From the NCBI GenBank assembly GCA_018660415.1, contig JABJKG010000013.1, positions 129,874-193,873 on the forward strand: a stretch of 64,000 nt of DNA, in the 5' to 3' direction. Positions 15,391 to 58,826 of this stretch are shown piece by piece. The first letter of the stretch is position 1. Every line of letters starts with the position of its first letter. A program made the position numbers and the translations under genes. Under the pieces are notes generated by a model that worked only from the letters and a program-made list of their open reading frames with translations, made no database searches and was not told the origin of the DNA. Source of the DNA: a bacterium (lineage in GTDB: Bacteria > Babelota > Babeliae > Babelales > UBA12409).

Positions 15391-16509
15391 ATGAAGAAGC
15401 TATTAAGTGTTGTATGTTTGATTTTCTGTGGTTCTTTGTATGGTATGCAAAAAAAAGCTATTATTTTTGGAGTTACCGGGCAGGACGGATCTTATTTAGC
15501 TGAATTGCTATTAAGCAAGGGGTATGAGGTTCATGGGGTTAAGCGCAGGTCTTCTTCCTTTAACACTTCTCGGTTAAATAGTTTGTATCAAGATTCTCAT
15601 GGTGAGAATGTTAGTTTTAAACTTCATTATGGTGATCTAACCGATTCTCTCAATATAACGAGCCTTTTACGAGAAATAGAACCAGATGAGATTTATAATC
15701 TTGGAGCTCAAAGTCATGTTCGGGTGTCATTTGATATTCCAGAGTACACCGGTAACTGTGACGGCTTAGGTACGCTTCGCATTTTAGAAGCAATTAGGTT
15801 TTTAGGGCTAGAGCAAAAAACAAAATTCTATCAAGCATCGACTAGTGAACTTTATGGATTAGTTCAAGAGATCCCTCAAAAAGAAACGACGCCTTTTTAT
15901 CCACGATCACCCTATGCTGTAGCTAAGATATATGGGTATTGGATTACCGTGAACTATCGAGAATCATATAATATGTTTGCGTGTAACGGTATTTTATTTA
16001 ATCATGAATCTCCTCGTCGTGGAGAAACTTTCGTAACCAAAAAAATCAGTATGGCTATTGCTAAAATTAAGTATGGTCTTCAGGATTGTTTATACTTAGG
16101 AAATATGGATTCCAAGCGTGATTGGGGTTATGCAGCTGATTATGTTGAAGCTATGTGGATGATGTTACAACAGGATAAGCCGCAAGATTTTGTTATAGCT
16201 ACTGGTGAAACTCACACAGTTCGGGAGTTTGTTGAAGTTGCTTGTAAAGAGGCTGGCATTGCTTTAACGTGGCAAGGATCTGGTCTTGATGAAGTAGGAA
16301 TTAATGCTTCTGGTAAAACAATAGTTAAAATTGATCCTCGTTACTATCGTCCAGCAGAAGTGGAATTTTTACTTGGAGATCCTTCAAAAGCTGAAAAAGA
16401 ACTTGGATGGAAGCCTAAGGTTTGTTTTAAAGAGTTAGTTAAGCGGATGGTTCAGTTTGATTTAGAACAGTGTTGTATGAGTAATAATGTACGTCGAAAC
16501 AAGGAATAA
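15391..16509 (+). CDS. gmd: GDP-mannose 4,6-dehydratase with an 18-aa N-terminal hydrophobic extension
   Basis: Motifs [22 protein letters not shown] and NHESPRRG. A Shine-Dalgarno-like AGGAAG lies 7 nt before the ATG at 15391. No such site precedes the internal Met at 15445. Confidence 0.93.
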
Positions 16510-16510
16510 C

Positions 16511-17503
16511 ATGAAAAAAACATATGTATTGATGATCGTCTTTTTATTTGTCACTATGGCTGAATGTGCTATGGATAAAAACGCAAGGATTTTTGTTGCT
16601 GGTCATAGAGGGTTAGTGGGCTCGGCATTGGTTAGAATCCTGGACGATCTTGGTTATCATAATTTAATATTACGGTCTCATGATGAACTTGATTTAACTG
16701 ACAAATTGGCTGTAGAAGAGTTTTTTGCGCAAGAAGAGCCGGATTATGTATTTTTAGCTGCAGCCAAGGTAGGGGGTATCGTTGGAAATAGCCGCTATCC
16801 GGCAGACTTTATATATGAAAACCTTCAAATTGAAACCAATGTGATTCATTCTTCCTATAGATTTGGAGTTAAAAAGCTCCTATTTCTAGGTTCATCTTGT
16901 ATATATCCGCGTATGTGTCCACAACCAATTAAAGAAGAGTATTTATTAAGTGACTATTTAGAGCCCACAAACGATGCCTATGCGATCGCAAAGATTGCTG
17001 GGATCAAAATGTGCCAATCGTATAATAAGCAGTATGGGACTAATTTTATAGCCTGTATGCCTACAAACCTTTATGGGCTTAATGATAACTTTGATTTAGA
17101 AATGTCGCATGTGCTTCCAGCTCTTATTGCAAAGGTTCAGAAAGCCAAGGCTAATGGCGATAAAAACTTTGTAGTTTGGGGGACAGGTCAAGTTAAACGA
17201 GAGTTTCTCTATGTTGATGATTTAGCTGAAGCATGTGTTTTTCTTATGAACAATTATGATGACAGTGATATTATTAACATTGGGACCGGTGAAGATGTAA
17301 CTATTGCTCAATTGGTGGAGGCTGTGAAAAGGGCTATAGGATATGACGGTGAAATTATTTATGATACTACCAAGCCGGATGGTACTCCTCGTAAGTTACT
17401 GGATGTAAGCAAAATAAATAATCTTGGGTGGAAGGCTAAGCATTCTTTAGCGGATGGTTTAGAGCTGACAACCAAATGGTATAAGCGGACCATTATCGGA
17501 TGA
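16511..17503 (+). CDS. fcl: GDP-L-fucose synthase (GDP-4-keto-6-deoxymannose 3,5-epimerase/4-reductase) with a 20-aa N-terminal hydrophobic extension
   Basis: Motifs RIFVAGHRGLVGSA and YAIAKIAG. AAGGAA lies 6 nt before the ATG at 16511, which is 1 nt after the gmd stop. Confidence 0.9.
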   Translation: MKKTYVLMIVFLFVTMAECAMDKNARIFVAGHRGLVGSALVRILDDLGYHNLILRSHDELDLTDKLAVEEFFAQEEPDYVFLAAAKVGGIVGNSRYPADFIYENLQIETNVIHSSYRFGVKKLLFLGSSCIYPRMCPQPIKEEYLLSDYLEPTNDAYAIAKIAGIKMCQSYNKQYGTNFIACMPTNLYGLNDNFDLEMSHVLPALIAKVQKAKANGDKNFVVWGTGQVKREFLYVDDLAEACVFLMNNYDDSDIINIGTGEDVTIAQLVEAVKRAIGYDGEIIYDTTKPDGTPRKLLDVSKINNLGWKAKHSLADGLELTTKWYKRTIIG

Positions 17504-18417: not shown

Positions 18418-19557
18418 TTAGTTCCAATCGATATCCCAAATATCCAACTTCTTGAATAAGGATTTTCCATACTGTTCTAACCATACTTGTACTTGTATTT
18501 TTTGCCAACTTTTGGCATGAGCATAAATATCCTTGTCAAAAAACTTATATTCTGAAAACCAGCTTTGTGGAGAAACTTTAGTTTCTAATCCAACTTCATT
18601 TTTGCTTTCACCGTATATTTTATTTATTTTATAAGGGTTCATTTTTGGATTACGAATTCGCTCTAAACATCGATACCATGCTTGTTTTATTAAAAGATTC
18701 TCCCAATTAACAAATTGGAAATGCATGAGGCCCACAGAGTAATCTCCTTGATAACGGGTGGTGATTACACTAGTAAATTGGTTTGTTGAATAGATTGTCC
18801 AAGCTTTAGTGGCTTGCGCTTGAGGAGATAAATCTGCATATTTTTCTTGTACGAAGTGTAGAACTTGAGTCAAGCGTATGCGTTGCTGGTAGTTTAAATG
18901 TATAACTTGTTGTGGCCTAAAATGCAGTAAAGGATCTTCAAGAGTAAGGTTATATCTTTGTCCTGTGAGATTCAGGTTCGGTGATCTAGAGCAGTGGATG
19001 AAGTTAGAGTTATATGAGCAGCCAGGCTGATCACAAAATATACAGTCATTAAGACTTCCAGACCAAGGAGAGCTATCGTATCGATATTGTTCTGTAGATC
19101 GCCACAGTTGAATCCAAGTAGCGTGTAGAACATCACCAGGTTGTAAAGATAAAATTTTATTACGAAGGAAATTTTTATGTAGGCAGTTACTAGTGAAAAT
19201 TTCATCAGCATCAATAACGATGAAATGGGTTCCACCAGCCTTTCTACCCGCCTCTAGTAGTTTGTTTTTATCTCCAGGTTCATCTCTAAACCAAACCGTT
19301 TTTTTGATTATTTGTACAATATTACATTCGTTAGCTAGTGACTCTAGTATTGGAACTGTTTTACCATCATCCGATGCATCATCAAGAACTATAATAGCAT
19401 CTGTATATAAAGATAGTGCTTTGAGACATTGTCCTACTATATCAGCTTCGTTCCTTACTGCCACAAGCCCAATGATTTTGTGTGGTTTTTTAATTTGATT
19501 GTATGCATTTATACTTAGAACGAAGAAGGAAAATAAGAGTATACTTAATTTTTTCAT
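18418..19557 (-). CDS. GT2-like (GT-A fold) glycosyltransferase with signal-anchor
   Basis: Motif VAVRNEADIVGQCLKALSLYTDAIIVLDDASDDG...FIVIDADE (DxD). Confidence 0.6.
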   Translation of the reverse strand: MKKLSILLFSFFVLSINAYNQIKKPHKIIGLVAVRNEADIVGQCLKALSLYTDAIIVLDDASDDGKTVPILESLANECNIVQIIKKTVWFRDEPGDKNKLLEAGRKAGGTHFIVIDADEIFTSNCLHKNFLRNKILSLQPGDVLHATWIQLWRSTEQYRYDSSPWSGSLNDCIFCDQPGCSYNSNFIHCSRSPNLNLTGQRYNLTLEDPLLHFRPQQVIHLNYQQRIRLTQVLHFVQEKYADLSPQAQATKAWTIYSTNQFTSVITTRYQGDYSVGLMHFQFVNWENLLIKQAWYRCLERIRNPKMNPYKINKIYGESKNEVGLETKVSPQSWFSEYKFFDKDIYAHAKSWQKIQVQVWLEQYGKSLFKKLDIWDIDWN

Positions 19558-23510: not shown

Positions 23511-24890
23511 TTATGCTTTGAGTTTCTTTTTTGAATTGAAATAGTAAAAATAATAAGGTTTTTTTATTTTTATTTCTTTTTTTAACAAGCCGGAATTGCA
23601 TATTTGCATTGCCCAGGGGGTATCTTCAGCATAGGAGAGCTCAGGGAAAGCAAACTTGCATGCTATTGATTTTTTTATTGGGTTAAGGTGATTTGGCGGT
23701 CGATAATAAGCTTTTTTGTCATCACTATATTTTTTATATTTTATAGAATGAATAAATGGCTTATCAAATTTATTGTTAACAAAATAATGGCCAGTTAAGC
23801 TAACACAATCGGGATTGTTTAAAATTGCTTTGTAGATGATTTCGATATAGTCTTCAGAAATTTTGTCATCATCATCAATAAATGAAATATATTCCCCGGT
23901 ACAGTCGGCTACTAATGCATTACGCTTAGTTCCTACCGATAAATCAGTGTTATCCCTAAAGAAAACTATTTCAATTTTGTCTTCGAGGCAATTTTTTTGT
24001 ATTTGTTGTTCCAGTTGCGTTAAGAGACTACTAAATGTTTTTTTTCTTGAGTCTAGCGTAGGGATTAAGATGCTCCATTTAATTTGAGAAGTTTGCATAT
24101 AAAAATTATGGTCTCGTCTAGTCCAGAAAGTAACTTTATCTTCATCGTGGAAAGAATCATTATGGCGATAAAGTTCATCCATTTTAGTTGCATCATTACC
24201 ACCCCAAGCTGGATGTCGATGCTCTAATAGAGTTTGATGTACATAGCGTTCTTTTTGTAACAGCTTTGCAATTGCAGTAAATTCATTGTCTGAACAAAGA
24301 GACTTGTAGACGGGGTTATAAAGAAACCCAAATTGTCGGTAATATTTGTTATCCATTATTGAATAGGTAATAATTTCTTCTCCAGCGTGCCCATCATAGA
24401 AGTTTAAAACTCCGTTTCCTGTGGGGAAAAATTTTTGCATGTTCTCAGCAATAACAAGGTCAAACCCTTTCGTAACAGGATACATGTCATCACTTGCAAG
24501 AAGAATAATGTCAAAGTCATCTATATGCTTATCTACATCAGCATTGCATGCAGATATTTTCCCATTATTATTGCCAAAATAATAACTCAAGTTTGGGAAT
24601 TGTTTGAATTTATTTATACTTTTGGGGCAATTCATTGTTTTGTCATCTATATCACAAGAAATAACAAAATGAACAGGAATTTTGTGCGAAAGATGGTGAT
24701 AAAAACGTTTGAGATTTTTGAAAAATAGATCGGGACGTGATCTTGTAGGCCATTTAATCAAAAGGCGTGGTTGGGTGTTATTATGAAAACATACATCGTT
24801 AGAAGAAATTTGTTTAACAATGGGTACAATCCTATAAGGAGTGTATAATCCAATACATAAAAGAATCACAAAAATGGATTTAATTTGCAT
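23511..24890 (-). CDS. Two-domain glycosyltransferase: N-terminal unassigned domain (paralogue of 25709-26512) plus C-terminal GT2
   Basis: The N-terminal half aligns by eye with ORF 25709 (LLIK.PTR.R, ISCD..D..MN, LLASDDM.P, GVLNF.DGH, FGF.Y.P.Y). The C-terminal half has ILIPTLDSR...FIDDDD. Confidence 0.65.
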   Translation of the reverse strand: MQIKSIFVILLCIGLYTPYRIVPIVKQISSNDVCFHNNTQPRLLIKWPTRSRPDLFFKNLKRFYHHLSHKIPVHFVISCDIDDKTMNCPKSINKFKQFPNLSYYFGNNNGKISACNADVDKHIDDFDIILLASDDMYPVTKGFDLVIAENMQKFFPTGNGVLNFYDGHAGEEIITYSIMDNKYYRQFGFLYNPVYKSLCSDNEFTAIAKLLQKERYVHQTLLEHRHPAWGGNDATKMDELYRHNDSFHDEDKVTFWTRRDHNFYMQTSQIKWSILIPTLDSRKKTFSSLLTQLEQQIQKNCLEDKIEIVFFRDNTDLSVGTKRNALVADCTGEYISFIDDDDKISEDYIEIIYKAILNNPDCVSLTGHYFVNNKFDKPFIHSIKYKKYSDDKKAYYRPPNHLNPIKKSIACKFAFPELSYAEDTPWAMQICNSGLLKKEIKIKKPYYFYYFNSKKKLKA

Positions 24891-25012
24891 TATTACTACT
24901 TTCTAAATTCATAAAAATATTAAATATTATTTCCAGTTAAAACTTGCAAAAACTATAAAATTTGTAAAGGTTTTATATTATGTATAAAGGGTTGTAAAAA
25001 GGAAAAACTACT

Positions 25013-25690
25013 ATGAAAAGTTGGTTGCTGTTAGGGCTGTTGCTAGGGGTATACTTTGTTGTTGAGTCTAAGTTTTACAGTCAATGTAAGCAGGATCAAT
25101 TTGTTTATGAAACTTTTTTTAAGGATAAAAAGGATGGTTTTTTTGTTGAAATAGGGGCAGATGATGGTATTACATTTAGTAATACCTTATTTTTTGAAGA
25201 ACTTGGCTGGAAGGGAATATGTATTGAGCCTAGACCTACAGCTTTTACAAAGTTAATACAAAATAGACACTGTTTTTGTGATAAGCAAGCTATTGCGGCC
25301 AAAAAAGGAAGTCGAGAGTTTTTGGTTGTAGAAGGTTATTGTCAAATGCTGAGTGGATTTGTTGATACTTATGATCCAGTTCATTTACAACGGATAAAAA
25401 GAGAGTTAAAACAATTTGGTGGCACGAGTTATGTAGAGACTGTTCCATGTATTTCTTTTAACGAACTATGTGACACGTATAATGCTAAAAAAATAGATTT
25501 GTTAAGTGTTGATACTGAGGGTAGCGAGCTGGAAATTCTTAAGCTCATTGATTTTGATCATATTTATATACAGGTGATTGTAGTAGAGAATTTATATGGA
25601 AGTAAGGCTATTAAGGAATTACTCACAAAAAATGGGTACTCATTGGTCAAGGTGCTAGATAGTGATGAAGTTTATTATAAGCCACACTAA
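25013..25690 (+). CDS. FkbM-family SAM-dependent methyltransferase with signal-anchor
   Basis: Motifs FVEIGADDGITFSNT and DLLSVDTEGSELEILK, the Methyltransf_21/FkbM signature. Confidence 0.75.
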   Translation: MKSWLLLGLLLGVYFVVESKFYSQCKQDQFVYETFFKDKKDGFFVEIGADDGITFSNTLFFEELGWKGICIEPRPTAFTKLIQNRHCFCDKQAIAAKKGSREFLVVEGYCQMLSGFVDTYDPVHLQRIKRELKQFGGTSYVETVPCISFNELCDTYNAKKIDLLSVDTEGSELEILKLIDFDHIYIQVIVVENLYGSKAIKELLTKNGYSLVKVLDSDEVYYKPH

Positions 25691-36953: not shown

Positions 36954-37502
36954 ATGGACGATAACAATAATAACAACCTCGACAATAGTACGTTAGAAGT
37001 TGATTTACAGTTAATTCAGATCAAGAAGATAGACGGTGAGTATTCTCGTCGGCAGATTCGGTCACTTGTTTTCCACTTGTTATATGCAATGGAAGAGTTT
37101 GACTATGATGTGTCTTTAGACTCATTGATTGATAATTTCAATCGTGGGTTCGATCAAGAGATCGAGATTGATGGTGAAATCGCTACTATCACTCAAAAGG
37201 TTATTGATGATCGTCATGAACTGGATAAGCAGTTACAACCATTCCTAGAAAAATGGCGCTTGGAACGGCTTGGTGTTTGTACCAAAATTATACTTCGGCT
37301 TGGATTATGGGAGATGCTTCATGACAATGTCAGAACCATTATCGCTATCAATGAAGCCGTTGAGTTAGCAAAATGCTTTACTGAAAAGGATGCATACAAG
37401 TTTATCAATGGTGTCCTTGATAGAATCGCTACCCATCTTGGCAAGAAGGATGAGAAAGAGGATGATGATAAGGCTACTGATTCAGAAGAAGCTTCTGACT
37501 AG
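36954..37502 (+). CDS. nusB: Transcription antitermination factor NusB (poly-Asn N-terminus, acidic C-terminal tail)
   Basis: Motifs RRQIRSLVFHLLYAME, ILRLGLWEM, AINEAVELAK and FINGVLDRI. An AAGAGG site precedes the ATG at 36954. Confidence 0.8.
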   Translation: MDDNNNNNLDNSTLEVDLQLIQIKKIDGEYSRRQIRSLVFHLLYAMEEFDYDVSLDSLIDNFNRGFDQEIEIDGEIATITQKVIDDRHELDKQLQPFLEKWRLERLGVCTKIILRLGLWEMLHDNVRTIIAINEAVELAKCFTEKDAYKFINGVLDRIATHLGKKDEKEDDDKATDSEEASD

Positions 37503-37517
37503 AGCGTGAAAACAAAT

Positions 37518-37562
37518 AAAAATTCGCCTTAGCCTCACGAATGAGACCAAGGCGAATTTTTA
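37518..37562. terminator. Bidirectional terminator between nusB and the Cys-rich peptide gene
   Basis: Outer stem aaaattcgcctt / aaggcgaatttt with an inner ctca/tgag stem, flanked by A-run and T-run. Confidence 0.75.
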
Positions 37563-37585: not shown

Positions 37586-37783
37586 TTACCCTTGACACTT
37601 GTCACAGCAGCCAAGGCATCCAAGGATACCACAACCACAGTTACATGAATCACATGATTCTGTTTTCATAATCTTAGCAGGTTTTGAATCGCCACAACAT
37701 GATGTACATGTTGAGCAAGAACCAGCTTGAAGTAATCCAACACTACCTAACAAAACGAATAATGTTACTAATTTACCCTTCAT
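37586..37783 (-). CDS. Small secreted Cys-rich peptide (65 aa; 12 Cys in a ~45-aa mature part)
   Basis: Strong AAGGAG site and signal MKGKLVTLFVLLGSVGLLQA. The mature part is GSCSTCTSCCG...CDSCNCGCGILGCLGCCDKCQG. Confidence 0.7.
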   Translation of the reverse strand: MKGKLVTLFVLLGSVGLLQAGSCSTCTSCCGDSKPAKIMKTESCDSCNCGCGILGCLGCCDKCQG

Positions 37784-37832
37784 AATGATTCTCCTTTTTA
37801 AAGGGGGTTATTAATAATTGCCTTGAGAAATT

Positions 37833-37991
37833 TTATCTACCGCAGCAACCACTCTTACAAGAGCTACATGCTTTCTTAACTATTTTTCCATTTTTATCTT
37901 TAGTTTCCTTAGTTTCAGCTCGTCCACAACCAGCCTGAAGTAACCCAAGACCACCAACGATAACAAATAATGCCATTAATTTACGTTTCAT
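37833..37991 (-). CDS. Small secreted Cys-rich peptide, paralogue (52 aa)
   Basis: AAGGAA site, signal MKRKLMALFVIVGGLGLLQA, then GCGR... and C-terminal CSSCKSGCCGR. It shares the C-S-x-C-x-S-(G)-C-C-G motif with 37586-37783. Confidence 0.65.
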   Translation of the reverse strand: MKRKLMALFVIVGGLGLLQAGCGRAETKETKDKNGKIVKKACSSCKSGCCGR

Positions 37992-38291
37992 AGTTTTTCC
38001 TTTATATAAAACTACTCTTTCATTATTACTATCCCTATGATAGCAATAATTGAATTCAAATAGCAATAGTTTTGCAATAATAATGCTATCTTTGGGCGAT
38101 TGGCTGATTAGGTGGGTGTATTGGTGACAGTGAATAGGGCCGTTCTTGGTTGGGTGAAAGGTGTGTCCGGTTGCCAATAGTCGCTGTCAGTATTTGTATT
38201 GGGCGATTTTAACCTGCGGGGATGTTAAAAAGTGCTTAACGGTAGGCGTTTTGTTGGGTAGAAAGATTCTATATGTATAGAAGGTGGAAAT

Positions 38292-44022: not shown

Positions 44023-44670
44023 ATGGTTGTTAAAAAAGCATTCTTATTAATTGTTTTTGTGGGTATGACATCGGTCTTACAGGGAGGTCAAGCTCAATCG
44101 CGTCAAGAGTATCCTCTTAATTTTGTTTCAGCACATCATGAAGCTGCTCACTCGGTAGTTGCAGTATTGCTAGCTGATCGCAATAAGCGTTTTGCACTAT
44201 ATGATACTGTCGTTTTTTTGAATGCGTCTTCTGACCAATCTTCAGGAGAAACCCGTTTTTATCCCAAGAGAAAACAAGAATTATTGCCTCGGGAAAATAT
44301 AGAGTCACTGCTTTGTATGATTATAACATTAATGGCAGGGCGTGCAGCAGAAGAAATACTTTTTAATGAGTCAGACTGTTGTTCTGCTGACTATGCACTT
44401 GCGTGTAAGTATGCACGAGATCTTGAATGCTATGCGAATGATTATAACTTTGTTTTTTGTTTTGAAGACCTTATCAAAGATCTCATTGGTGAAGAGTCAA
44501 ACATAAGCATTTACCAAGGGATACAAAGTGATGAAATTGTAAATCGATGCTTAGATGTTTCACGGCAGTTTCTGACTCATCATACAAAGCTTTTGGAAAG
44601 GCTTGCGACTGTTCTTTTGAATGGCAAGCGCCTGCGTGCACAAGAGGTCAAAAACATTCTTGCTCTATAG
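44023..44670 (+). CDS. Stand-alone FtsH-type M41 metalloprotease domain with signal peptide (no AAA+ module)
   Basis: Signal MVVKKAFLLIVFVGMTSVLQG. Motifs AHHEAAHSVVA (HExxH), LMAGRAAEEILF and SADYALACKYARD match the FtsH protease-domain pattern. Confidence 0.65.
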   Translation: MVVKKAFLLIVFVGMTSVLQGGQAQSRQEYPLNFVSAHHEAAHSVVAVLLADRNKRFALYDTVVFLNASSDQSSGETRFYPKRKQELLPRENIESLLCMIITLMAGRAAEEILFNESDCCSADYALACKYARDLECYANDYNFVFCFEDLIKDLIGEESNISIYQGIQSDEIVNRCLDVSRQFLTHHTKLLERLATVLLNGKRLRAQEVKNILAL

Positions 44671-44755: not shown

Positions 44756-46306
44756 ATGAAGAAATTAAAAGTTTGTTTTTTGTTTTTTTTCTTAAGCTGT
44801 ATTGTCTATGATGCAGTTCCCGAACATAAATCTTTTTTTGCAGAAGTTGCTAAAGATATCATTGTTGGAACGGCTGTCTTTGCTTCTGTTATGGGGTTAC
44901 TACACGTTTTTAAATCAGTATTGGTTCAAGAGAATGGGCTGACTGAAATTAAGCATTCCAATGATACGTTTGAATCGGTAGCAGGTCTTGATGAGGCTAA
45001 AGAAGAGCTCACAGATATTATTGATTTTCTTAAAAATCCTGAAAAGTTTCAGTTTCTAGGTGCTCATATTCCTCGAGGTATTTTGCTAACGGGTGCGCCT
45101 GGTAACGGTAAAACTTTGCTTGCTCGTGCTATAGCAGGAGAGACAGGTTGTTCTTTTTACAGTGTTAATGGAGCTGACTTTGTTGAGCTTTATACCGGTG
45201 TTGGTCCAGCACGGATGCGTGAACTATATAAAGCAGCACAACAGAATGCACCATCGATTATTTTTATTGATGAAATTGATGCGGTAGCTCGCCATCGAAG
45301 TCGCGATAATAATGATCACGGTGAATATGATAATACGTTATTACAATTGTTAGTGCTCATGGATGGCTTTGAAAAGAACGATAAGCCAGTAGTATTTATT
45401 GGTGCTACTAATTTACAAGAAGCGTTGGATAGTGCACTACTTAGACCTGGAAGGTTTGATCGTATTGTTCATGTCTCGTTACCGGATATAAAAAATCGTA
45501 CAAAAATTTTACAATATTTTGCAGATTCTTTATGTATGGGTCCTAAGGTCAATCTTAAAGAGATAGCACAAACTACGGTCGGATTTTCTGGAGCGCATTT
45601 AAAGAATCTTATGAATGAGGCTGCAATTATTGCATCGCGTAAGAACCGCAAGCTAATAGCACAGGCTGACTTGATAGAGGCTCGAGATAAAACTATTTAT
45701 GGTAAAGCACTTAAGTCTCGTATTCTTACCGAAAAAGAAAAAAAGGTAACAGCTGTGCATGAGTCTGGCCATGCATTAGTGAACTTATTACTCAAAAAAT
45801 ATAGTCTTCCTCTTTATAAAATCACGATTGTGCCGCACGGAGAAGCTCTTGGATTTACTGGTATGTTGACCAATGAAGATCGTTATTCTTGTTCTAAGGA
45901 GGAGCTGGTTGCACAAATCATGATGCTTCTTGGTGGTCGTGCAGCAGAAGAGATAACGTTTGCACAATTATCTACCGGTGCTTCCGATGACTTTAAGCAC
46001 GCATCGCGGCTAGCACGCGAGATGGTTATGATCCACGGCATGTCTGCCGAAATGGGAACCGTATTTTATGATACGACACAGTATAGATTTTCTGAAGAGA
46101 CCCTACAAAAGATTGATAACCAAGTTAAGCGTATCATTCAAAAATGTTATGAGGAGACTCGGCTATTGCTGGCCAAGCATATTCGAGAACTCCAAGTTTT
46201 GTCTGATCGTCTCTTTATAGATGAAACCTTGTATTGTGAGGATGTCGCGACATTATATACCGATGATAGCCTTGCTGACGAGTCTTTCTACCTTCCAGCA
46301 GTTTGA
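44756..46306 (+). CDS. ftsH: FtsH-family ATP-dependent zinc metalloprotease paralogue with a minimal extracytoplasmic loop
   Basis: Walker A GAPGNGKT, Walker B IIFIDEIDA, SRH region LLRPGRFDR, and HESGHAL. Only about 60 aa precede the AAA module. Confidence 0.85.
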   Translation: MKKLKVCFLFFFLSCIVYDAVPEHKSFFAEVAKDIIVGTAVFASVMGLLHVFKSVLVQENGLTEIKHSNDTFESVAGLDEAKEELTDIIDFLKNPEKFQFLGAHIPRGILLTGAPGNGKTLLARAIAGETGCSFYSVNGADFVELYTGVGPARMRELYKAAQQNAPSIIFIDEIDAVARHRSRDNNDHGEYDNTLLQLLVLMDGFEKNDKPVVFIGATNLQEALDSALLRPGRFDRIVHVSLPDIKNRTKILQYFADSLCMGPKVNLKEIAQTTVGFSGAHLKNLMNEAAIIASRKNRKLIAQADLIEARDKTIYGKALKSRILTEKEKKVTAVHESGHALVNLLLKKYSLPLYKITIVPHGEALGFTGMLTNEDRYSCSKEELVAQIMMLLGGRAAEEITFAQLSTGASDDFKHASRLAREMVMIHGMSAEMGTVFYDTTQYRFSEETLQKIDNQVKRIIQKCYEETRLLLAKHIRELQVLSDRLFIDETLYCEDVATLYTDDSLADESFYLPAV

Positions 46307-51610: not shown

Positions 51611-53191
51611 ATGAAAAAAATATTAAAGTTAAGTCTTGCGTTATTACTTGTGCTCGGAGCACAAGCGGATTATAACTATACAGGAAAGTCATTCTTTTCT
51701 ACCATTAATCCATCTCAATTAAGTTTCCCTGAACGTGTAGCAAGTTTCAGAACGGATAGACAGTACGCAAAAGAGTGTGGTTGGGGCGCGGCGTTCCAAG
51801 CTGTTGGATTCTGGCAAAGCTCTGGTAGTAGCGATCGCCTAGGTGAGTACTTCATGCCATTTAACAAGTGTGCATTGGTTGCGGGTGAATATGGTTCTAA
51901 CTCTGTTAAAACACATAGTAATGATCTTCTTGCTAACTACTTTGGTGTTTTCACCGATACAGTTAATACTACTGTGGGTGTTCCAAGTCCTAATACATTA
52001 ACCTTCCAAAGTACTATTTCCATGAAACCACAACATAAAGTATATGGTGTTGGGCTTACATGGCAGCAACGACTATTCAAGTGCTTATGGGCTGATGTTT
52101 CTACATCAATCGTTCAAGTTCAAAATAAGATGAACTTCTGTGAAAAAGTACAGAATTCTGGTGGCGGTAACGTTCCAGAAGGTTCATATGCAAACATGAC
52201 TGCAGCTTTTGCAAGTAACCGACTTAACTATGGCCGTATTACCAAGTGTAATATGAAAAAGAGCGGTGTTGCAGATGTAGAGTTCCGTCTTGGGTATGAA
52301 AAAGACCTTTGTGATTGCTGTGGCGTTGGTGGCATCTATGTTGGTGGTTTAATTCCAACAGGTAACAAGCCTGGTGATACCAAACTGAGTACTGCTACAA
52401 CAACTAGTTCTACTACAAAACCTTGTGATTATGGTCGTTATATGTTCCAACCAATCGTTGGTAATAACCATCACTGGGGAGTTCTTTTTGGATCTTATGG
52501 TCGCCTTGAAATAATTAACAGCAACAGTGGTTGCCCTCTAACGCTGATGACTGACTGTACTGCTAAGTATCTTGCTAGTAACAAGCAAAAACGTTCATTT
52601 GATTTAAAAGGTAAGCCTTGGAGTCGTTACATTCATACATGGAACAACTCAGCAGCTGTTGCAACTGACTTGACTCTAGCTAACCTTGTACCATTAATTA
52701 ACTACACAACTCTTAATTCAAATGTTCGACCAGGCTGGTCTCTTGATTGGAACAATGCATTGCATTACCAATACAAATGCTTCGCGTTTGAAGTTGGCTG
52801 TAATGTGTATGCGCGTGAAGGTGAAAGCATCTCATGCTGCCAAAAAATCCAAGGTGGTATTGGACTTGCTGATCTTTATGAGTGGGCTGATGAAGATACT
52901 GTAGTAACTGCAGGATTAGAAACCATTACTCGTGATAACTGGGGTAACGCTACCGATGTTGATATTGATGGTAATGATGTTTATCTTACTGTTGCTCAAG
53001 CTGATATTGATTATATGTCAGCAGCAGCGCCTCCTGTATTTAACGGTACTATTTATGGTGCTGTTACTTATGATTGGAACAACTGTAAAGTTCCTGCTTT
53101 CATTAGCGGTGGTGGTTCTTATACTTTCACTAGTGATAATGCAGCACTCAATAACTGGGTTGCTTGGGTTAAAATTGGTATAGCCTTTTAA
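51611..53191 (+). CDS. Putative Cys-rich outer-membrane beta-barrel (porin/MOMP-like)
   Basis: Signal MKKILKLSLALLLVLGAQA, alternating aromatic/polar strands, and a C-terminal ...WVKIGIAF ending in Phe. About 16 Cys, including CDCCG and SCCQ. Confidence 0.55.
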   Translation: MKKILKLSLALLLVLGAQADYNYTGKSFFSTINPSQLSFPERVASFRTDRQYAKECGWGAAFQAVGFWQSSGSSDRLGEYFMPFNKCALVAGEYGSNSVKTHSNDLLANYFGVFTDTVNTTVGVPSPNTLTFQSTISMKPQHKVYGVGLTWQQRLFKCLWADVSTSIVQVQNKMNFCEKVQNSGGGNVPEGSYANMTAAFASNRLNYGRITKCNMKKSGVADVEFRLGYEKDLCDCCGVGGIYVGGLIPTGNKPGDTKLSTATTTSSTTKPCDYGRYMFQPIVGNNHHWGVLFGSYGRLEIINSNSGCPLTLMTDCTAKYLASNKQKRSFDLKGKPWSRYIHTWNNSAAVATDLTLANLVPLINYTTLNSNVRPGWSLDWNNALHYQYKCFAFEVGCNVYAREGESISCCQKIQGGIGLADLYEWADEDTVVTAGLETITRDNWGNATDVDIDGNDVYLTVAQADIDYMSAAAPPVFNGTIYGAVTYDWNNCKVPAFISGGGSYTFTSDNAALNNWVAWVKIGIAF

Positions 53192-54496: not shown

Positions 54497-56440
54497 ATGA
54501 AAAAGTTAGTTATAGCATTAGTGCTGGTGGGAGTATGGATACAGGGAGCTTGTGGGGGTAGCTTTGAACCATTGAGACAAGAGTATCTTCGTATCATGGC
54601 AGAAGAGCCTAAAGCGATGATGAGTGTAAATATTCCACAATTAGATGGTTTACAAGCTGATATTGTTAGCTTGATAGGAGACGTAAGCATAAGCTCGGAG
54701 AAAGATCAAAAAATCCTATCCAGTCTTCAAATAAACCTCAAAACATTATCTAATCTATTGCGTAACCTTAAAAGACGCAAAGAAGAGATTGAAGGGTATG
54801 CCAAGCAGCAGCTTGTGGTTGCTAGGCAGGGTAAGCATGATGCAGAGATGCAATTAGCGGCCTTGCAAAGCAACTATGATCGAGCATTGGTGCAGATTGC
54901 GGGAGATCGCGAGGATGTCGCCGGAGCAGTTCTTGAACAATATAAGGGGGCTAGTCCTCAACAAAAAGCCAAGTTAGAAGAAAAGGTAGCAGAAGCTAAT
55001 AAGATGGTGGTCGATGGAGCGGAGCTGGTTTTACATCAAGCACGTGAGGGTGATAAGAAGGAAGAAGATATTTTCAAGGCGGCAAGTCAGATTGGACAAG
55101 CCCAGCAGATGAATGAAGCCCTGATTCAGGGTAAGAGTGATGATATTGAAGAACTTCAAAGAGAAGTAGCTCATGTAGAAGAGCAGCGCGATCAAGCAGC
55201 AGAAGAAGCAGAGGGCTTTAGCGAACAGCTTGATGAGGCACAAATTAAAGTAGAGCGATTGAAAAAAGAAGTAGCTGCCATCGAAAAGAGAGCTCTCCTA
55301 GCAAAAACCGAAGAAGAACGGGCTCGTTTAGCAGAACAAGCAGAACGAGAGAAAGAAGCTCTTAAAAAAGCCGAAGCAGTAGCTGCTGATTATCGAGAAA
55401 AAATTCAACATCGACAAGGATTAATAGATGAGCTTGAGCAAGAAAAGAAAAGAATCGAAGCTAATATCGAAGGCTTACGTAGCGATGTTGAAAATCTCAA
55501 AAATCGAAACGAGGAGCTCCAGCGGCTTCTTGAAGAGCTTTCTTTAGAGTCGAGTAAAATTGCGACTATTAGAAGCACAGTGGCTAATCTTTATAAGCAA
55601 GAAGTAGCCTTAGCGGGAATTGATGCGACTTATGTACGATTAAAAGCATTAGAAGGTATTGAGGATATTCCTGAGGATGTTAGAGAAGAAGCACACGCTA
55701 TGATTACCAGGTCGCGATTAGATCAAGGAGAAAAAGATCGACTCTTACATGAGTTGGCAGAGCCTCTTAGTGAAAAGCAGCGAGAAGAGCTTGCAGAACT
55801 TACTAAAGCAAGACGAGCAGTAACATTACATCAAATTAGAAACGCTCATACTACTATCAAGTCATTATTAGAAGATAAAGAGCGTGCAATTCAAGAACAA
55901 GTAGCGCCTACGCAGTCTACATGGCAGCGTTGGTGGTCTGGTGGTTATGATAAGGCCAATATAAAAGATGAAGCCTTGAGAGGTGATGTTTCTCTCTTAG
56001 AGCGCGAGGTAGAGCTTGGAAAAGCATTAAGGCAGGTTGACTATAATGCTACAGAGGCTATGCAAAAGTTCCCACACCTCTTTGATAAGAACCAGGTTAT
56101 GGGCATGCGTCCTGAAGCTGGAGGTTTTGCTCTGGAAGGACGCCAACACCTTCAGATTGAAGCTCCTGCTGGAGAGGAAGTGGTCGTTGAACAAGTAGCG
56201 CCAGGTCGCATGGCACAGTTGGCGTTGTGGGGATCTCGAGTGAAAGGTTGGGGAGCAGCAGCCGGTCGTTTTGCCAAGGATGTCTTTACACCAGGTGCTC
56301 CAGAAACGGACATTCTCAAGATCGTAGCTAATGCCAAACAAGAAGTACTTGATCGAGAGCATCGTGAGCAAGAGCAAGATCGTCAGGATCAAGACGAAAG
56401 AGAGGCTGAGTGGGAAAGAATGCGCCAAGAGCAAAGATAG
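54497..56440 (+). CDS. Secreted coiled-coil protein, family member 1
   Basis: Signal MKKLVIALVLVGVWIQGACG. About 300 aa of the C-terminal half are clearly paralogous to 56449-57804 (LYKQE.ALA.ID...RLKALE, VAPTQSTW..WWSG.YDK, GRMAQLALWGSR.K.WG.AAGRFA). Confidence 0.75.
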   Translation: MKKLVIALVLVGVWIQGACGGSFEPLRQEYLRIMAEEPKAMMSVNIPQLDGLQADIVSLIGDVSISSEKDQKILSSLQINLKTLSNLLRNLKRRKEEIEGYAKQQLVVARQGKHDAEMQLAALQSNYDRALVQIAGDREDVAGAVLEQYKGASPQQKAKLEEKVAEANKMVVDGAELVLHQAREGDKKEEDIFKAASQIGQAQQMNEALIQGKSDDIEELQREVAHVEEQRDQAAEEAEGFSEQLDEAQIKVERLKKEVAAIEKRALLAKTEEERARLAEQAEREKEALKKAEAVAADYREKIQHRQGLIDELEQEKKRIEANIEGLRSDVENLKNRNEELQRLLEELSLESSKIATIRSTVANLYKQEVALAGIDATYVRLKALEGIEDIPEDVREEAHAMITRSRLDQGEKDRLLHELAEPLSEKQREELAELTKARRAVTLHQIRNAHTTIKSLLEDKERAIQEQVAPTQSTWQRWWSGGYDKANIKDEALRGDVSLLEREVELGKALRQVDYNATEAMQKFPHLFDKNQVMGMRPEAGGFALEGRQHLQIEAPAGEEVVVEQVAPGRMAQLALWGSRVKGWGAAAGRFAKDVFTPGAPETDILKIVANAKQEVLDREHREQEQDRQDQDEREAEWERMRQEQR

Positions 56441-56448
56441 GAGTGACG

Positions 56449-57804
56449 ATGAACAGGGTTATATTAATTTTACTAGGATCCATGATAATGCAGGGGGTAC
56501 ATGCCCAAAGTGAGGAGCTCCGTATTATGCGTGAGCAGGTGGAACATGAACAGTTGATCAACAATAAGCGTAACGAGCTTAGAGAGCTTGAGCAGCAAAA
56601 AAATGTTCTCTTGCAAGATCATAGAGCAAAACTTGCTCAAGCAACTCAAGACTTTAATGAAAGGACTGAAGAGCAGCAACGCAACGTGAGAAAATTGCAA
56701 CAATTGGCTGCTGCTAGCCAAAGAGGCAACACACCAGACGCATTTAGGGATAGGCAGAACGTTGAAAGAGCAAATGAAAGGCTAGAGGCGATAGAGGAAG
56801 AAGAGCTGGCTTATCGTCAAACTAGAATAAGTGAGTGGACCCATGAAACAGCTCAAATAGATAGTAGGATTCGTGTCTTACAGCAGGAGATTGACACCCT
56901 TACAAGGGACAGTGAAGGGCGCGCCCGACACTTAGAAGGCTTTTCTTTAGACTCTAGTAGTATGGGTACGATTAAAACTACTGCTGCAAAGCTTTATAAA
57001 CAAGAGCAGGCTTTAGCAAAGATTGATGAAACTTTAATACGCTTGAAAGCGCTTGAGGCGATTAGGTCTATTTCTGAAGAGGTAAAAGCAGAAGCTCAGT
57101 CGATAATTCAAAGATCTCGCTTAGAAGACCCTGAAAAACAACACCTTTTATATGAATTGGAACATCCCTTATCAGCCGAACAACAAGTAGAGCTTACAAG
57201 GTTGAATAAAGAACGACGCGAGATAACGTTGTTTCAGATTAGAACTGCCCACGCTAATATCAAATCGTTGTTGAAAGATAGAGAGCGTGCGATTCAAGAA
57301 TTGGTTGCGCCGACTCAATCGACATGGGAGCACTGGTGGTCAGGTAGTTATGATAAGGATAATATTGCCGATGAAGGATTGAAAGGTGATATTTCTTTCT
57401 TAGAACAAGAGGTAGAGCTTGGAAAAGCATTGAGAAAGGTTGGCTATAATGCTACCAAAGCTATGAACAAGTTTCCAGAGCTGTTTAATATAGATCAAGA
57501 AGATGAATTTTTTGATATTGAGCCGCCGACTGTAGCGCCTAAGCCTGAGGCTGTAGAACCAGGACGTATGGCACAACTAGCGTTATGGGGATCTCGAATA
57601 AAAAGATGGGGTACTGCTGCAGGTCGTTTTGCACAACAGCTTCTAACACCAAGTGACCCTGAGAAAGACATTGTTAAGATTGTAGCTCATGCTCAGCAAG
57701 AGCTGCGTGATAGGGAGCATCGAGAGCTGGAGTATGAACGTCAAGAAGAGGAAGAAAGAGAAGCTAGATGGGAAAGTGTGCGTCAAGAAGGAGCAGAGAG
57801 CTAG
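56449..57804 (+). CDS. Secreted coiled-coil protein, family member 2
   Basis: Its AGGAG site overlaps the upstream stop codon. Signal MNRVILILLGSMIMQGVHA. Paralogy as described for member 1. Confidence 0.75.
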   Translation: MNRVILILLGSMIMQGVHAQSEELRIMREQVEHEQLINNKRNELRELEQQKNVLLQDHRAKLAQATQDFNERTEEQQRNVRKLQQLAAASQRGNTPDAFRDRQNVERANERLEAIEEEELAYRQTRISEWTHETAQIDSRIRVLQQEIDTLTRDSEGRARHLEGFSLDSSSMGTIKTTAAKLYKQEQALAKIDETLIRLKALEAIRSISEEVKAEAQSIIQRSRLEDPEKQHLLYELEHPLSAEQQVELTRLNKERREITLFQIRTAHANIKSLLKDRERAIQELVAPTQSTWEHWWSGSYDKDNIADEGLKGDISFLEQEVELGKALRKVGYNATKAMNKFPELFNIDQEDEFFDIEPPTVAPKPEAVEPGRMAQLALWGSRIKRWGTAAGRFAQQLLTPSDPEKDIVKIVAHAQQELRDREHRELEYERQEEEEREARWESVRQEGAES

Positions 57805-57925: not shown

Positions 57926-57956
57926 GATTTTGTTTTGTTTAAAATGGAGAAGAAAA

Positions 57957-58826
57957 ATGAAGAAGTTTATAGGGTTCCTTGTTTTTATGGGAACGATTCT
58001 ACCAGCAGTGTCTTTTGGTGATCATGAGCCATTAAGGCAGAGATATCTTGAAATTCTAAGAGAAGAGGGTGTAGCTACAGCACATGGGGACCTTGAGAGA
58101 TTTGCGCAGGTAGAGCAGGCGATTCCGCAATTAATAACTGATATTCAAGCTGCTGCACCAGGAGATAAACGTATGTTAGGGATACTTCAGATAACACCAG
58201 CAAGATTAACTTCTTATAACCAAGAAGTACAAAAACGACAACGGGCTGCAGAAGAGTTACAATTAGTTGTTGCTCAGCGTAATGCTGTAGAAGAGGAAAG
58301 ACAGAGGCGACTTCTCGAAGAGGCCGAAGAACAACGACGAGCTGACGAAGAGAGAGAGGCGCGGGATTATGAAGACAGGCAGAATGAAGCCGAAAAGCAA
58401 CGACGAGCTGACGAAGAGAGAGAAGCTGAAGAAGAGCGACGAGCTGAAAAAGAAGCAGACTGGGTAAGGCAGCAAGAAAAAGTTCGAGAAGAAAGATTTG
58501 TTAATCCTCGAGAAGAGCATGATCGACAAGCTGCAGAGCGGGCAATAAGAGCTAAGGAAGTACAACAAGAAATAATAAGAGAACACGAGGACACAGGGGC
58601 ACATGCTTCTTGGTTCAGTAATTTTGGTCGTGGGGCTATGGATCAATTTGATGGCGGAGAAGGAATGTGGGATCGCGACGACTCAGATGATGAGCCATTT
58701 CCAGCACAAGAAGAAGTGCAACCTGACCAAGAAGTAGCTGAAGAAGAGGTGGTTGAGGAACCGGCTAGGGAAGAAGTAGAAGAGGCATTTGAAGAGCATG
58801 CTGCACCTTTCGATCCATTTAGCTAA
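57957..58826 (+). CDS. Secreted coiled-coil/charged-repeat protein, family member 3
   Basis: Signal MKKFIGFLVFMGTILPAVSFG. The post-signal motif HEPLRQRYLEILREE matches FEPLRQEYLRIMAEE of member 1. It also contains RRADEEREA repeats. Confidence 0.7.
   Translation: MKKFIGFLVFMGTILPAVSFGDHEPLRQRYLEILREEGVATAHGDLERFAQVEQAIPQLITDIQAAAPGDKRMLGILQITPARLTSYNQEVQKRQRAAEELQLVVAQRNAVEEERQRRLLEEAEEQRRADEEREARDYEDRQNEAEKQRRADEEREAEEERRAEKEADWVRQQEKVREERFVNPREEHDRQAAERAIRAKEVQQEIIREHEDTGAHASWFSNFGRGAMDQFDGGEGMWDRDDSDDEPFPAQEEVQPDQEVAEEEVVEEPAREEVEEAFEEHAAPFDPFS
58332..58460 (+). repeat. Intragenic 66-nt tandem repeat
   Basis: caacgacgagctgacgaagagagaga occurs at 58332 and 58398 (26/26 identical). A degenerate third copy starts near 58434. 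Confidence 0.8.

Follow-up and report, generated by a model that had tools for sequence, protein, structure and literature searches.

In character, the peptides reported here come closest to the conotoxin and defensin gene families of eukaryotes, in which a conserved signal sequence precedes a hypervariable Cys-rich mature peptide, to the metallothioneins, whose loci typically show tandem gene amplification, and to the small chlamydial envelope protein OmcA (PF03503, Chlam_OMP3). OmcA is a proven lipoprotein, although LipoP scores it as a signal peptidase I substrate (PMC2811131). Bacteria also possess small Cys-rich Cu-binding peptides such as MymT, which, like the metallothionein SmtA, is described without an export signal; the only exported Cu store covered by the same source is Csp1, a Tat-dependent four-helix bundle (PMC7558416). 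In this study, we analyzed a 64,000-nucleotide stretch of bacterial DNA (contig JABJKG010000013.1, positions 129,874 to 193,873; hereafter the window) and a tandem pair of minus-strand open reading frames (ORFs) within it, ORF A and ORF B, that encode tiny, Cys-rich, apparently secreted peptides. Sequence comparisons place the pair in a previously undescribed, clade-restricted micropeptide family whose likeness to OmcA and the metallothioneins is by analogy only, and the literature yielded no earlier description of Cys-rich peptides or disulfide biology in Dependentiae, the group to which the window can be assigned.

The ORF pair and its transcription unit

Both ORFs are present where a preliminary description of the window had placed them (Table 1). 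When the predicted precursors are cut behind LLQA, the mature part of ORF A has 45 residues, of which 12 are Cys (27%) and none is aromatic or His, and that of ORF B has 32 residues with 5 Cys and a net charge of +6, in accord with the lengths and Cys counts first given; the mean Cys content of window proteins is 1.5%. The shared motif C-S-x-C-x-S-(G)-C-C-G that had been pointed out takes the form CSTCTSCCG in ORF A and CSSCKSGCCG in ORF B, and ORF A also contains the reported CDSCNCGCG and GCLGCCDKC. The two signal peptides had been called near-identical, which is slightly generous: GLLQAG does terminate both, but 14 of 21 positions are identical, the remaining 7 being conservative replacements.

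Table 1. Coordinates of the features discussed in the text (window numbering; ↓, predicted cut)
Feature	Position	Strand	Description
ORF A	37586..37783	-	65 aa, 12 Cys (18.5%): MKGKLVTLFVLLGSVGLLQAGSCSTCTSCCGDSKPAKIMKTESCDSCNCGCGILGCLGCCDKCQG
ORF A signal peptide	37783..37724	-	codons 1-20: MKGKLVTLFVLLGSVGLLQA; mature part GSCSTCTSCCGDSKPAKIMKTESCDSCNCGCGILGCLGCCDKCQG
ORF B	37833..37991	-	52 aa, 5 Cys (9.6%): MKRKLMALFVIVGGLGLLQAGCGRAETKETKDKNGKIVKKACSSCKSGCCGR
ORF B signal peptide	37991..37932	-	codons 1-20: MKRKLMALFVIVGGLGLLQA; mature part GCGRAETKETKDKNGKIVKKACSSCKSGCCGR
Predicted promoter of the pair	38037..38072	-	promoter scan and conservation in 5 lineages
B-A intercistronic spacer	37784..37832	-	49 nt; carries the Shine-Dalgarno sequence of ORF A
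Bidirectional intrinsic terminator	37517..37562	both	terminator scan; long, perfectly paired hairpin (at least 20 bp) between T-runs
Putative outer-membrane protein	51611..53191		signal peptide (…GAQA↓DYNY), C-terminal …GIAF; 540 aa, mature length 526 aa

Because ORFs A and B were the only ones to combine at least 9% Cys with a signal-like N-terminus among the 173 six-frame ORFs of at least 40 aa in the window, and because no such ORF arose in 30 shuffled windows, the pair exceeds chance. Both ORFs are also retained in related genomes, with synonymous substitutions and with indels that preserve the frame. Many marine metagenome contigs, the largest of 408 kb, carry exact copies of both peptides with the same neighbors, and the exact protein of each ORF is annotated as a gene on many contigs; ORF A has further homologs (P0002-P0004, P0011, P0012), and the ORF B ortholog at locus L016 (locus numbers are our own) is 84-90% identical, with omega (dN/dS) of about 0.1-0.2. 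The nine loci that we fetched by exact peptide look-up (L001-L009) hold no divergence information; since their DNA is 100% identical, they represent one population, which is present in low-oxygen marine samples (for instance JGI 3300004276, JGI 3300004280 and the HAWL17-1 assemblies). Several assemblies lack an annotation for the 65-aa ORF A, and because the DNA of the fetched copies is identical throughout, this absence is a gene-caller artifact.

The pair appears to form a bicistronic operon that runs from a dedicated, conserved sigma-70-type promoter to a bidirectional terminator, a conclusion we draw because the conserved promoter blocks precede only arrays of this peptide family. Upstream of ORF B, an invariant block, AAACTATTGCTATTTGAA (38072..38055), holds the -35 hexamer TTGCTA (38066..38061), which is followed after an 18-nt spacer by a TG-extended -10 element, TATCAT (38042..38037). 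When the upstream regions of five lineages are aligned, nearly all of the ~300-nt intergenic region has diverged, and the only strongly conserved blocks are AAACTATTGCTATT(T/A)GAA, which holds the -35 hexamer, and the TTGnTAT -10 region 8 nt downstream of it. The -35 block occurs once in the window. A pattern joining both blocks, designed to skip the window's own lineage, matched five stretches in 241 million metagenome records, and all five precede arrays of the peptide family.

The terminator scan found no minus-strand terminator in the spacer between the two genes, and B and A are therefore predicted to be co-transcribed. Each gene had been credited with a strong ribosome-binding site. This applies to ORF A, whose Shine-Dalgarno (SD) sequence is AGGAG (37795..37791, 7 nt from the ATG), whereas the AAGGA of ORF B, 6 nt from its ATG, is moderate and the weaker of the two. 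The spacer and its SD are kept in L016, L010 and L013. The terminator hairpin lies downstream of ORF A and also serves the convergent nusB (which ends at 37502); a similar hairpin follows the peptide gene pair of L029. A longer, 114-aa form of ORF B starting at TTG was rejected, as it would read through the conserved promoter. From these sequence signals, the operon looks expressed. The preliminary description had named a lack of transcription or translation signals, or of conservation in relatives, as grounds for giving up the pair; instead, a conserved promoter, SD sequences and a terminator are found, and members of the family occur in seven lineages. An Rfam scan of the whole window gave no match.

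Other features of the leader region were observed alongside these signals. On the minus strand at 37776-37805, CCCUUUA upstream of the SD can pair with UGAAGGG (the start codon and codons 2-3) to give a 7-bp hairpin that leaves the SD in its loop. The hairpin is also present in L016, L010 and L013 and, in weaker form, in L029, and it stands only before MKGK-type genes, the MKRK and MKNK paralogs lacking both halves. In each lineage, the minimum-free-energy fold is this hairpin, with a stability not above that of shuffles (z 0 to -1.2), and all of its pairs are invariant across lineages, so that there is no covariation; it might be a translational control element, or nothing. Between the window (37724-37832) and L016 (1028-1136), ORF A shows no synonymous differences across its 5' leader and opening 20 codons, with synonymous divergence (dS) of about 0.5-0.65 in the rest of ORF A and the flanking genes, which suggests nucleotide-level constraint or recent gene conversion. 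Finally, a second, C-rich block (CCAATAnnCCCTCCCA-like; 38104-38125, minus strand) is semi-conserved in all five lineages about 40-60 nt upstream of the -35 hexamer, in an intergenic region that is otherwise diverged, unusually long and GC-rich, and may be a regulator site.

Family distribution, export and evolution

Counting called and uncalled ORFs, the family comprises 14 members in seven lineages, always in tandem arrays of two to four genes: two genes in the window, L016, L010/L011, L013 and L029, and four in L020. More distant homologs of the window's peptides come from 'candidate division TM6 bacterium RIFCSPHIGHO2_12_FULL_36_22' and a 'Candidatus Babeliales' metagenome-assembled genome (MAG). 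Because gene order at these loci matches that of the window (GT4, S1, NDK, a ~230-aa gene, a 361-363-aa gene, the peptide genes, an epimerase in some, nusB, efp and SHMT) and their housekeeping proteins are 71-85% identical to those of the window, we assign the window to a Babeliales (Dependentiae/TM6) bacterium. The suggestion that the host is an intracellular bacterium fits this placement, with TM6/Babeliales MAGs as the closest relatives, since cultivated Dependentiae are diderm obligate intracellular parasites of protists (PMC6561590, PMC4378268). Wherever flanks are available (window, L016, L010, L013), the array lies between the 361-363-aa gene and nusB/efp; the contigs of L020 and L029 are too short to show the neighbors of their arrays. 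The upstream 361-aa gene is conserved and has weak S-adenosylmethionine-methyltransferase similarity (Methyltransf_23, E = 3.5e-4, below the gathering score).

Within the limits of the searches made, the family appears restricted to a single clade of Babeliales. When 1.84 billion representative proteins were searched exhaustively with a HMMER profile, nine matched, all of them in the peptide family, and a word-indexed search of 5.8 billion proteins gave 10 matches. Of 185,579 species-representative genomes scanned as DNA for the N-terminal pattern MK[GRN]KL[VIM][TA]LF, which divergent signal peptides such as that of L029 would escape, one matched, the TM6 Rifle groundwater MAG. A scan of viral contigs found no relatives of the family. 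The L029 metagenome contig itself ends in an Illumina adapter (AGATCGGAAGAGCACACGTCTGAACTCCAGTCAC..., ~571-616), an assembly contaminant.

The idea that the peptides are secreted holds up across the family. By rule-based inspection, all 14 members have the layout of a Sec signal peptide, with an MK[GRN]K n-region, 13-14 hydrophobic residues and an [LAV]-Q-A↓ c-region within the family's G-L-x-Q-A context, so that a cut after Q-A leaves Ala at -1 and Leu, Ala or Val at -3 in every member. Other exported proteins of the window have signal ends of the same xQA type (AQA↓DYNY, SQA↓ALGEE, GQA↓QSRQ). Cleavage behind Q-A by signal peptidase I, with release of soluble peptides that bear no lipid into the periplasm, is in our view probable. 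The preliminary description had raised the alternative that the peptides are lipoproteins. In that case they would be small, membrane-anchored proteins like OmcA, and their lipobox, L-Q-A-[GA]-C, would be non-canonical and peculiar to the lineage; 11 of the 13 Cys-rich members have a Cys after Q-A-x, a similar I-Q-G-A-C junction occurs in the window protein at 54497..56440, and a lol lipoprotein-transport system has been reported in a cultivated Dependentiae (PMC6561590). However, because of the Gln at -3, both PROSITE PS51257 ([LIVMFWSTAG](2)-[LIVMFYSTAGCQ]-[AGS]-C) and G+LPPv2, applied as regular expressions at the first Cys, fail for every member, their sole match being an internal Cys of L020_2. 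Asp occupies -1 in both L010 peptides (QAD↓C), and ORF A reads QAGS↓C; in L029_1 (SQVQA↓AENVKKNDGCCC) the first Cys stands at +10, and in L020_1 the same signal peptide precedes a paralog that has no Cys at all (AQA↓EEDIE). Lipidation thus seems unlikely, and the suggestion was not sustained, although prediction tools also prefer signal peptidase I for OmcA, which is lipidated (PMC2811131).

The signal peptide and the mature part have evolved very differently. The N-terminal 20-22 residues are near-invariant (MK[GRN]KL[VIM][TA]L[FLM]V..G..G[LF].Q(V)QA), and in an eight-member alignment M1, K2, K4, L5, L8, F9, V10, G16, L17, Q19 and A20 are invariant. Synonymous codon differences in this part (omega ≤0.09) show it to be under purifying selection at the protein level. 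The mature parts, by contrast, are 41-49% identical between more distant lineages and carry in-frame indels; between the window and L016 their nonsynonymous divergence (dN) is 0.185 versus 0.016-0.033 in the flanking genes, with omega of 0.2-0.44. This pattern is consistent with fast or relaxed evolution anchored by Cys; positive selection is not demonstrated. The first gene of the four-gene array in L020 (225-404) joins the family signal peptide to a Cys-free, acidic 39-aa mature part (AQA↓EEDIEIIVFDAQPAMASGQ...), and the signal-peptide cassette has evidently been reused there, as judged from the sequence, for different cargo.

Mature peptides across the family have 29-54 residues, 12-29% Cys and zero to two aromatic or His residues each; pooled, they contain 22% Cys, 14% Lys, 13% Gly and 10% Ser, with aromatic residues and His together at about 2%. 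An N-terminal Cys cluster (C-x2-C-x2-C-C, C-x2-C-x-C or CC) is followed by a Cys-free, Lys/Glu/Thr-rich linker of 12-21 residues and, at the C-terminus, by one to three C-x2-C-x2-3-C-C(G) modules such as CSSCKSGCCGR, CNKCKTGCCGN, CNACKSGCCGRRK and CRTCNSCCGK; in P0007, a four-Cys module is tandemly duplicated internally. Cys counts range from 4 to 12 and follow no parity rule; even close orthologs differ in where their Cys residues stand. Many members are polycationic (net charge up to +11). An AlphaFold2 model of ORF A built on an eight-sequence alignment reached a predicted local distance difference test score (pLDDT) of 52.6 and predicted only the signal helix; thus, no fixed fold is predicted for the mature peptides.

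Candidate functions of the peptides

Sequence features suggest that the peptides would act through thiol clusters outside the cytoplasm. The function we favor, as a tentative choice that falls short of an even chance, is the cross-linking, through disulfides, of the envelope that surrounds the dormant infectious cell. In this model, the peptides would be exported by Sec, cut by signal peptidase I after Q-A and released as soluble peptides into the periplasm, where intermolecular disulfides would join their dense thiol clusters to one another and to envelope proteins that contain Cys, and where the polycationic linkers would attach to anionic components of the envelope. The envelope of the extracellular infectious cell would thereby be rigidified, and reduction inside the host would reverse the process. 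We favor cross-linking because export would place the peptides where disulfides form, because the lifestyle parallels that of chlamydiae and because polycationic linkers suit envelope binding. Cultivated Dependentiae contain dense periplasmic material, and their extracellular cocci stay infectious for years (PMC6561590). The comparison with OmcA is one of analogy: both are tiny exported peptides of very high Cys content with CC/CxxC motifs and Lys stretches, in obligate intracellular bacteria with a resistant extracellular stage, so that disulfide cross-linking is plausible for the new family too. Unlike OmcA, a protein of Chlamydiota, the Dependentiae family matches neither PF03503 nor a canonical lipobox, several of its members could not be lipidated at the cleavage site, and its genes form tandem paralog arrays with C-x2-C-x2-3-C-C repeats and no adjacent omcB-like gene.

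Sequence searches bear out the limits of the analogies with OmcA and metallothioneins, which stand as such but not as homology. With E up to 1, hmmscan against Pfam-A found no family for either peptide, PF03503 and the metallothionein families included, and an NCBIfam scan at the same limit found no match for either. phmmer of mature ORF A against the PDB (E up to 10) gave no match, and that of P0007 gave one chance match to a zinc-ribbon protein (E = 0.65). BLASTP against a human MT2A sequence was not significant (E = 0.36). Among the window ORFs that were scanned, a subset of all its ORFs, none matched PF03504 (OmcB), including the 540-aa protein of Table 1, and none was a redox or metal homeostasis gene; the neighbors at syntenic loci are housekeeping genes, with no adjacent omcB-like gene among them.

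Several points weigh against cross-linking. Neither an OmcB-like or other obvious partner linked to the operon nor a Dsb oxidoreductase was found among the scanned window ORFs. Soluble peptides of 3-5 kDa that have no lipid anchor would be odd structural elements, and, since OmcA itself scores as a signal peptidase I substrate, the failure of the lipobox patterns in silico is not conclusive as to the anchor. Moreover, evolution of the mature parts outpaces that of flanking genes 6-11-fold and copy number varies, which would fit host-interaction or metal-stress families at least as well, and the metallothionein-like composition could be explained equally well by metal binding. The putative outer-membrane protein, to which the preliminary description had drawn attention as Cys-rich, is a possible cross-linking partner: its Cys enrichment is moderate (16 Cys, 3.0%, about twice the window mean) and includes a CDCC motif, but it has no Pfam, NCBIfam or PDB match (phmmer for PDB), and its single-sequence AlphaFold model is unusable (pLDDT 30.4). 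Sequence alone does not separate cross-linking from a metal sink, a host-directed role or a lipoprotein.

A metal sink is a possible but doubtful alternative. On this account, the peptides are exported and metallothionein-like, and their reduced Cys clusters hold Cu(I)/Zn(II)/Cd(II) in thiolate clusters as a periplasmic sink or buffer, for example when the protist food vacuole exposes the cell to toxic Cu/Zn or when the surrounding water is sulfidic and low in oxygen. In size (3-5 kDa), Cys content (12-29%), CC/CxC/CxxC motifs, Lys/Gly/Ser richness and scarcity of aromatic residues and His, the mature peptides resemble eukaryotic metallothioneins, SmtA/BmtA (PF02069) and MymT, and they fall under the descriptive definition of the class (low mass, 15-35% Cys, CC/CxC/CxxC, few aromatics or His). 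They share with metallothioneins two Cys-rich regions around a Cys-free linker and tandem gene copies, the number and position of Cys are plastic between orthologs, and a four-Cys module is duplicated inside P0007; the lack of a predicted apo-fold also accords with metallothioneins, which fold only when metal-bound (PMC7558416). Yet there is no detectable homology to Pfam metallothionein families or solved metallothioneins, the new peptides carry a cleavable Sec signal, a feature absent from the descriptions of SmtA and MymT, none of the scanned ORFs near the operon encodes a metal sensor, pump or chaperone, no metalloregulator operator is recognizable in the promoter, and thiols would tend toward disulfides in an oxidizing periplasm. 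Csp1 is likewise an exported, Cys-rich potential metal store of the Gram-negative periplasm (PMC7558416), but it is a rigid four-helix bundle that forms tetramers and follows a Tat signal, whereas the peptides described here have 29-54 residues, a Sec signal with no twin-arginine motif and no predicted fold. Were they metal binders, a prospect to which we give about a one-in-four standing, they would be the first Sec-exported bacterial peptides of metallothionein type, a modular, tandemly amplified periplasmic thiolate sink against Cu/Zn or oxidative attack in the host food vacuole.

The conserved signal cassette could instead, as in conotoxin and defensin families, be a launch pad for fast-evolving cargo, here directed at the host or at competitors (effector, toxin or antimicrobial-like peptides), leaving through a secretin or outer-membrane vesicles and acting on the protist host. 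We judge this somewhat unlikely. A near-invariant signal peptide before a fast-diverging Cys-rich mature region, tandem duplication into arrays of two to four genes, a paralog with Cys-free cargo behind the same signal peptide and the polycationic nature of many members all speak for it. Among Dependentiae, 44% of coding sequences carry signal peptides and are ORFan-enriched, proteins with signal peptides are commonly taken to target the host, and the early phase of infection features outer-membrane vesicles (PMC4378268, PMC6561590); the window, with a secreted ankyrin-repeat protein and many signal-bearing ORFans, fits this picture. On the other hand, omega stays below 1 (0.2-0.44), a Sec signal alone leads only as far as the periplasm of a diderm cell, with no evident means of crossing the outer membrane, genes for immunity, transport or secretion are not linked to the operon, and its site is a stable, syntenic one among housekeeping genes rather than an effector island. 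True disulfide-knotted toxins, which are eukaryotic in the conotoxin and defensin families, have strictly conserved disulfide frameworks, whereas here the number and position of Cys drift. A more speculative reading, which we consider very unlikely, has these polybasic, Cys-string-like peptides, many of them with a CCxx end, arrive in the host and undergo S-acylation or prenylation in it. We rejected, as highly improbable, the reading as precursors of ribosomally synthesized and post-translationally modified peptides (RiPPs), in which a conserved leader and a Cys/Ser/Thr-rich core would be processed by a dedicated maturase (lanthipeptide, ranthipeptide or SCIFF-like). The conserved N-terminus with a variable Cys/Ser/Thr-rich C-terminus is a superficial likeness, and the upstream gene with sub-threshold Methyltransf_23 similarity might be cited in its favor. 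However, the N-terminus is a hydrophobic Sec signal rather than a RiPP leader, the five syntenic loci contain no radical-SAM, LanB/C/M, cyclodehydratase, protease or ABC exporter gene next to S1, NDK, NusB, EF-P and SHMT, and the peptides' own promoter separates them from the 361-aa gene.

Other window genes and implications

Unusual genes were also observed elsewhere in the window. In a ~20-kb glycan-biosynthesis cluster (15391-17503, 18418-19557, 23511-25690), normally cytoplasmic enzymes, among them GDP-mannose 4,6-dehydratase (Gmd), an NAD-dependent epimerase, GT2 glycosyltransferases and an FkbM methyltransferase, have signal-like hydrophobic N-terminal extensions; the Pfam match of Gmd begins at residue 25, behind its extension. 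These extensions could be mis-called starts, membrane anchors or marks of exported sugar-nucleotide enzymes. Three adjacent secreted ORFans with no Pfam match lie at 54497-56440, 56410-57804 and 57930-58826. Two of them are probably a paralog family, because they have in common an EPLRQ(E/R)YLR motif just after the signal peptide, and the I-Q-G-A-C junction of one of the trio resembles the Q-A-G-C of the peptides. A 215-aa ORF at 44023-44670, whose product combines a signal peptide with part of an M41 (FtsH) peptidase domain, stands directly upstream of a 516-aa AAA+/M41 protein (44756-46306) that lacks the usual FtsH N-terminal membrane region; the two may be a split or rearranged FtsH.

Our analysis also illustrates how micro-ORFs are overlooked, the 65-aa gene being uncalled in several assemblies. 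Both ideas about function can be tested directly, as the peptides are short enough for synthesis. If they are metal binders, they would constitute a new, exported class of bacterial metallothionein; if they are envelope cross-linkers, a chlamydia-like, disulfide-stabilized envelope would have arisen independently in another phylum. Dependentiae/Babeliales are widespread obligate parasites of protists that have scarcely been studied by experiment, and the operon offers a concrete candidate for a factor in the persistence of their extracellular cells.

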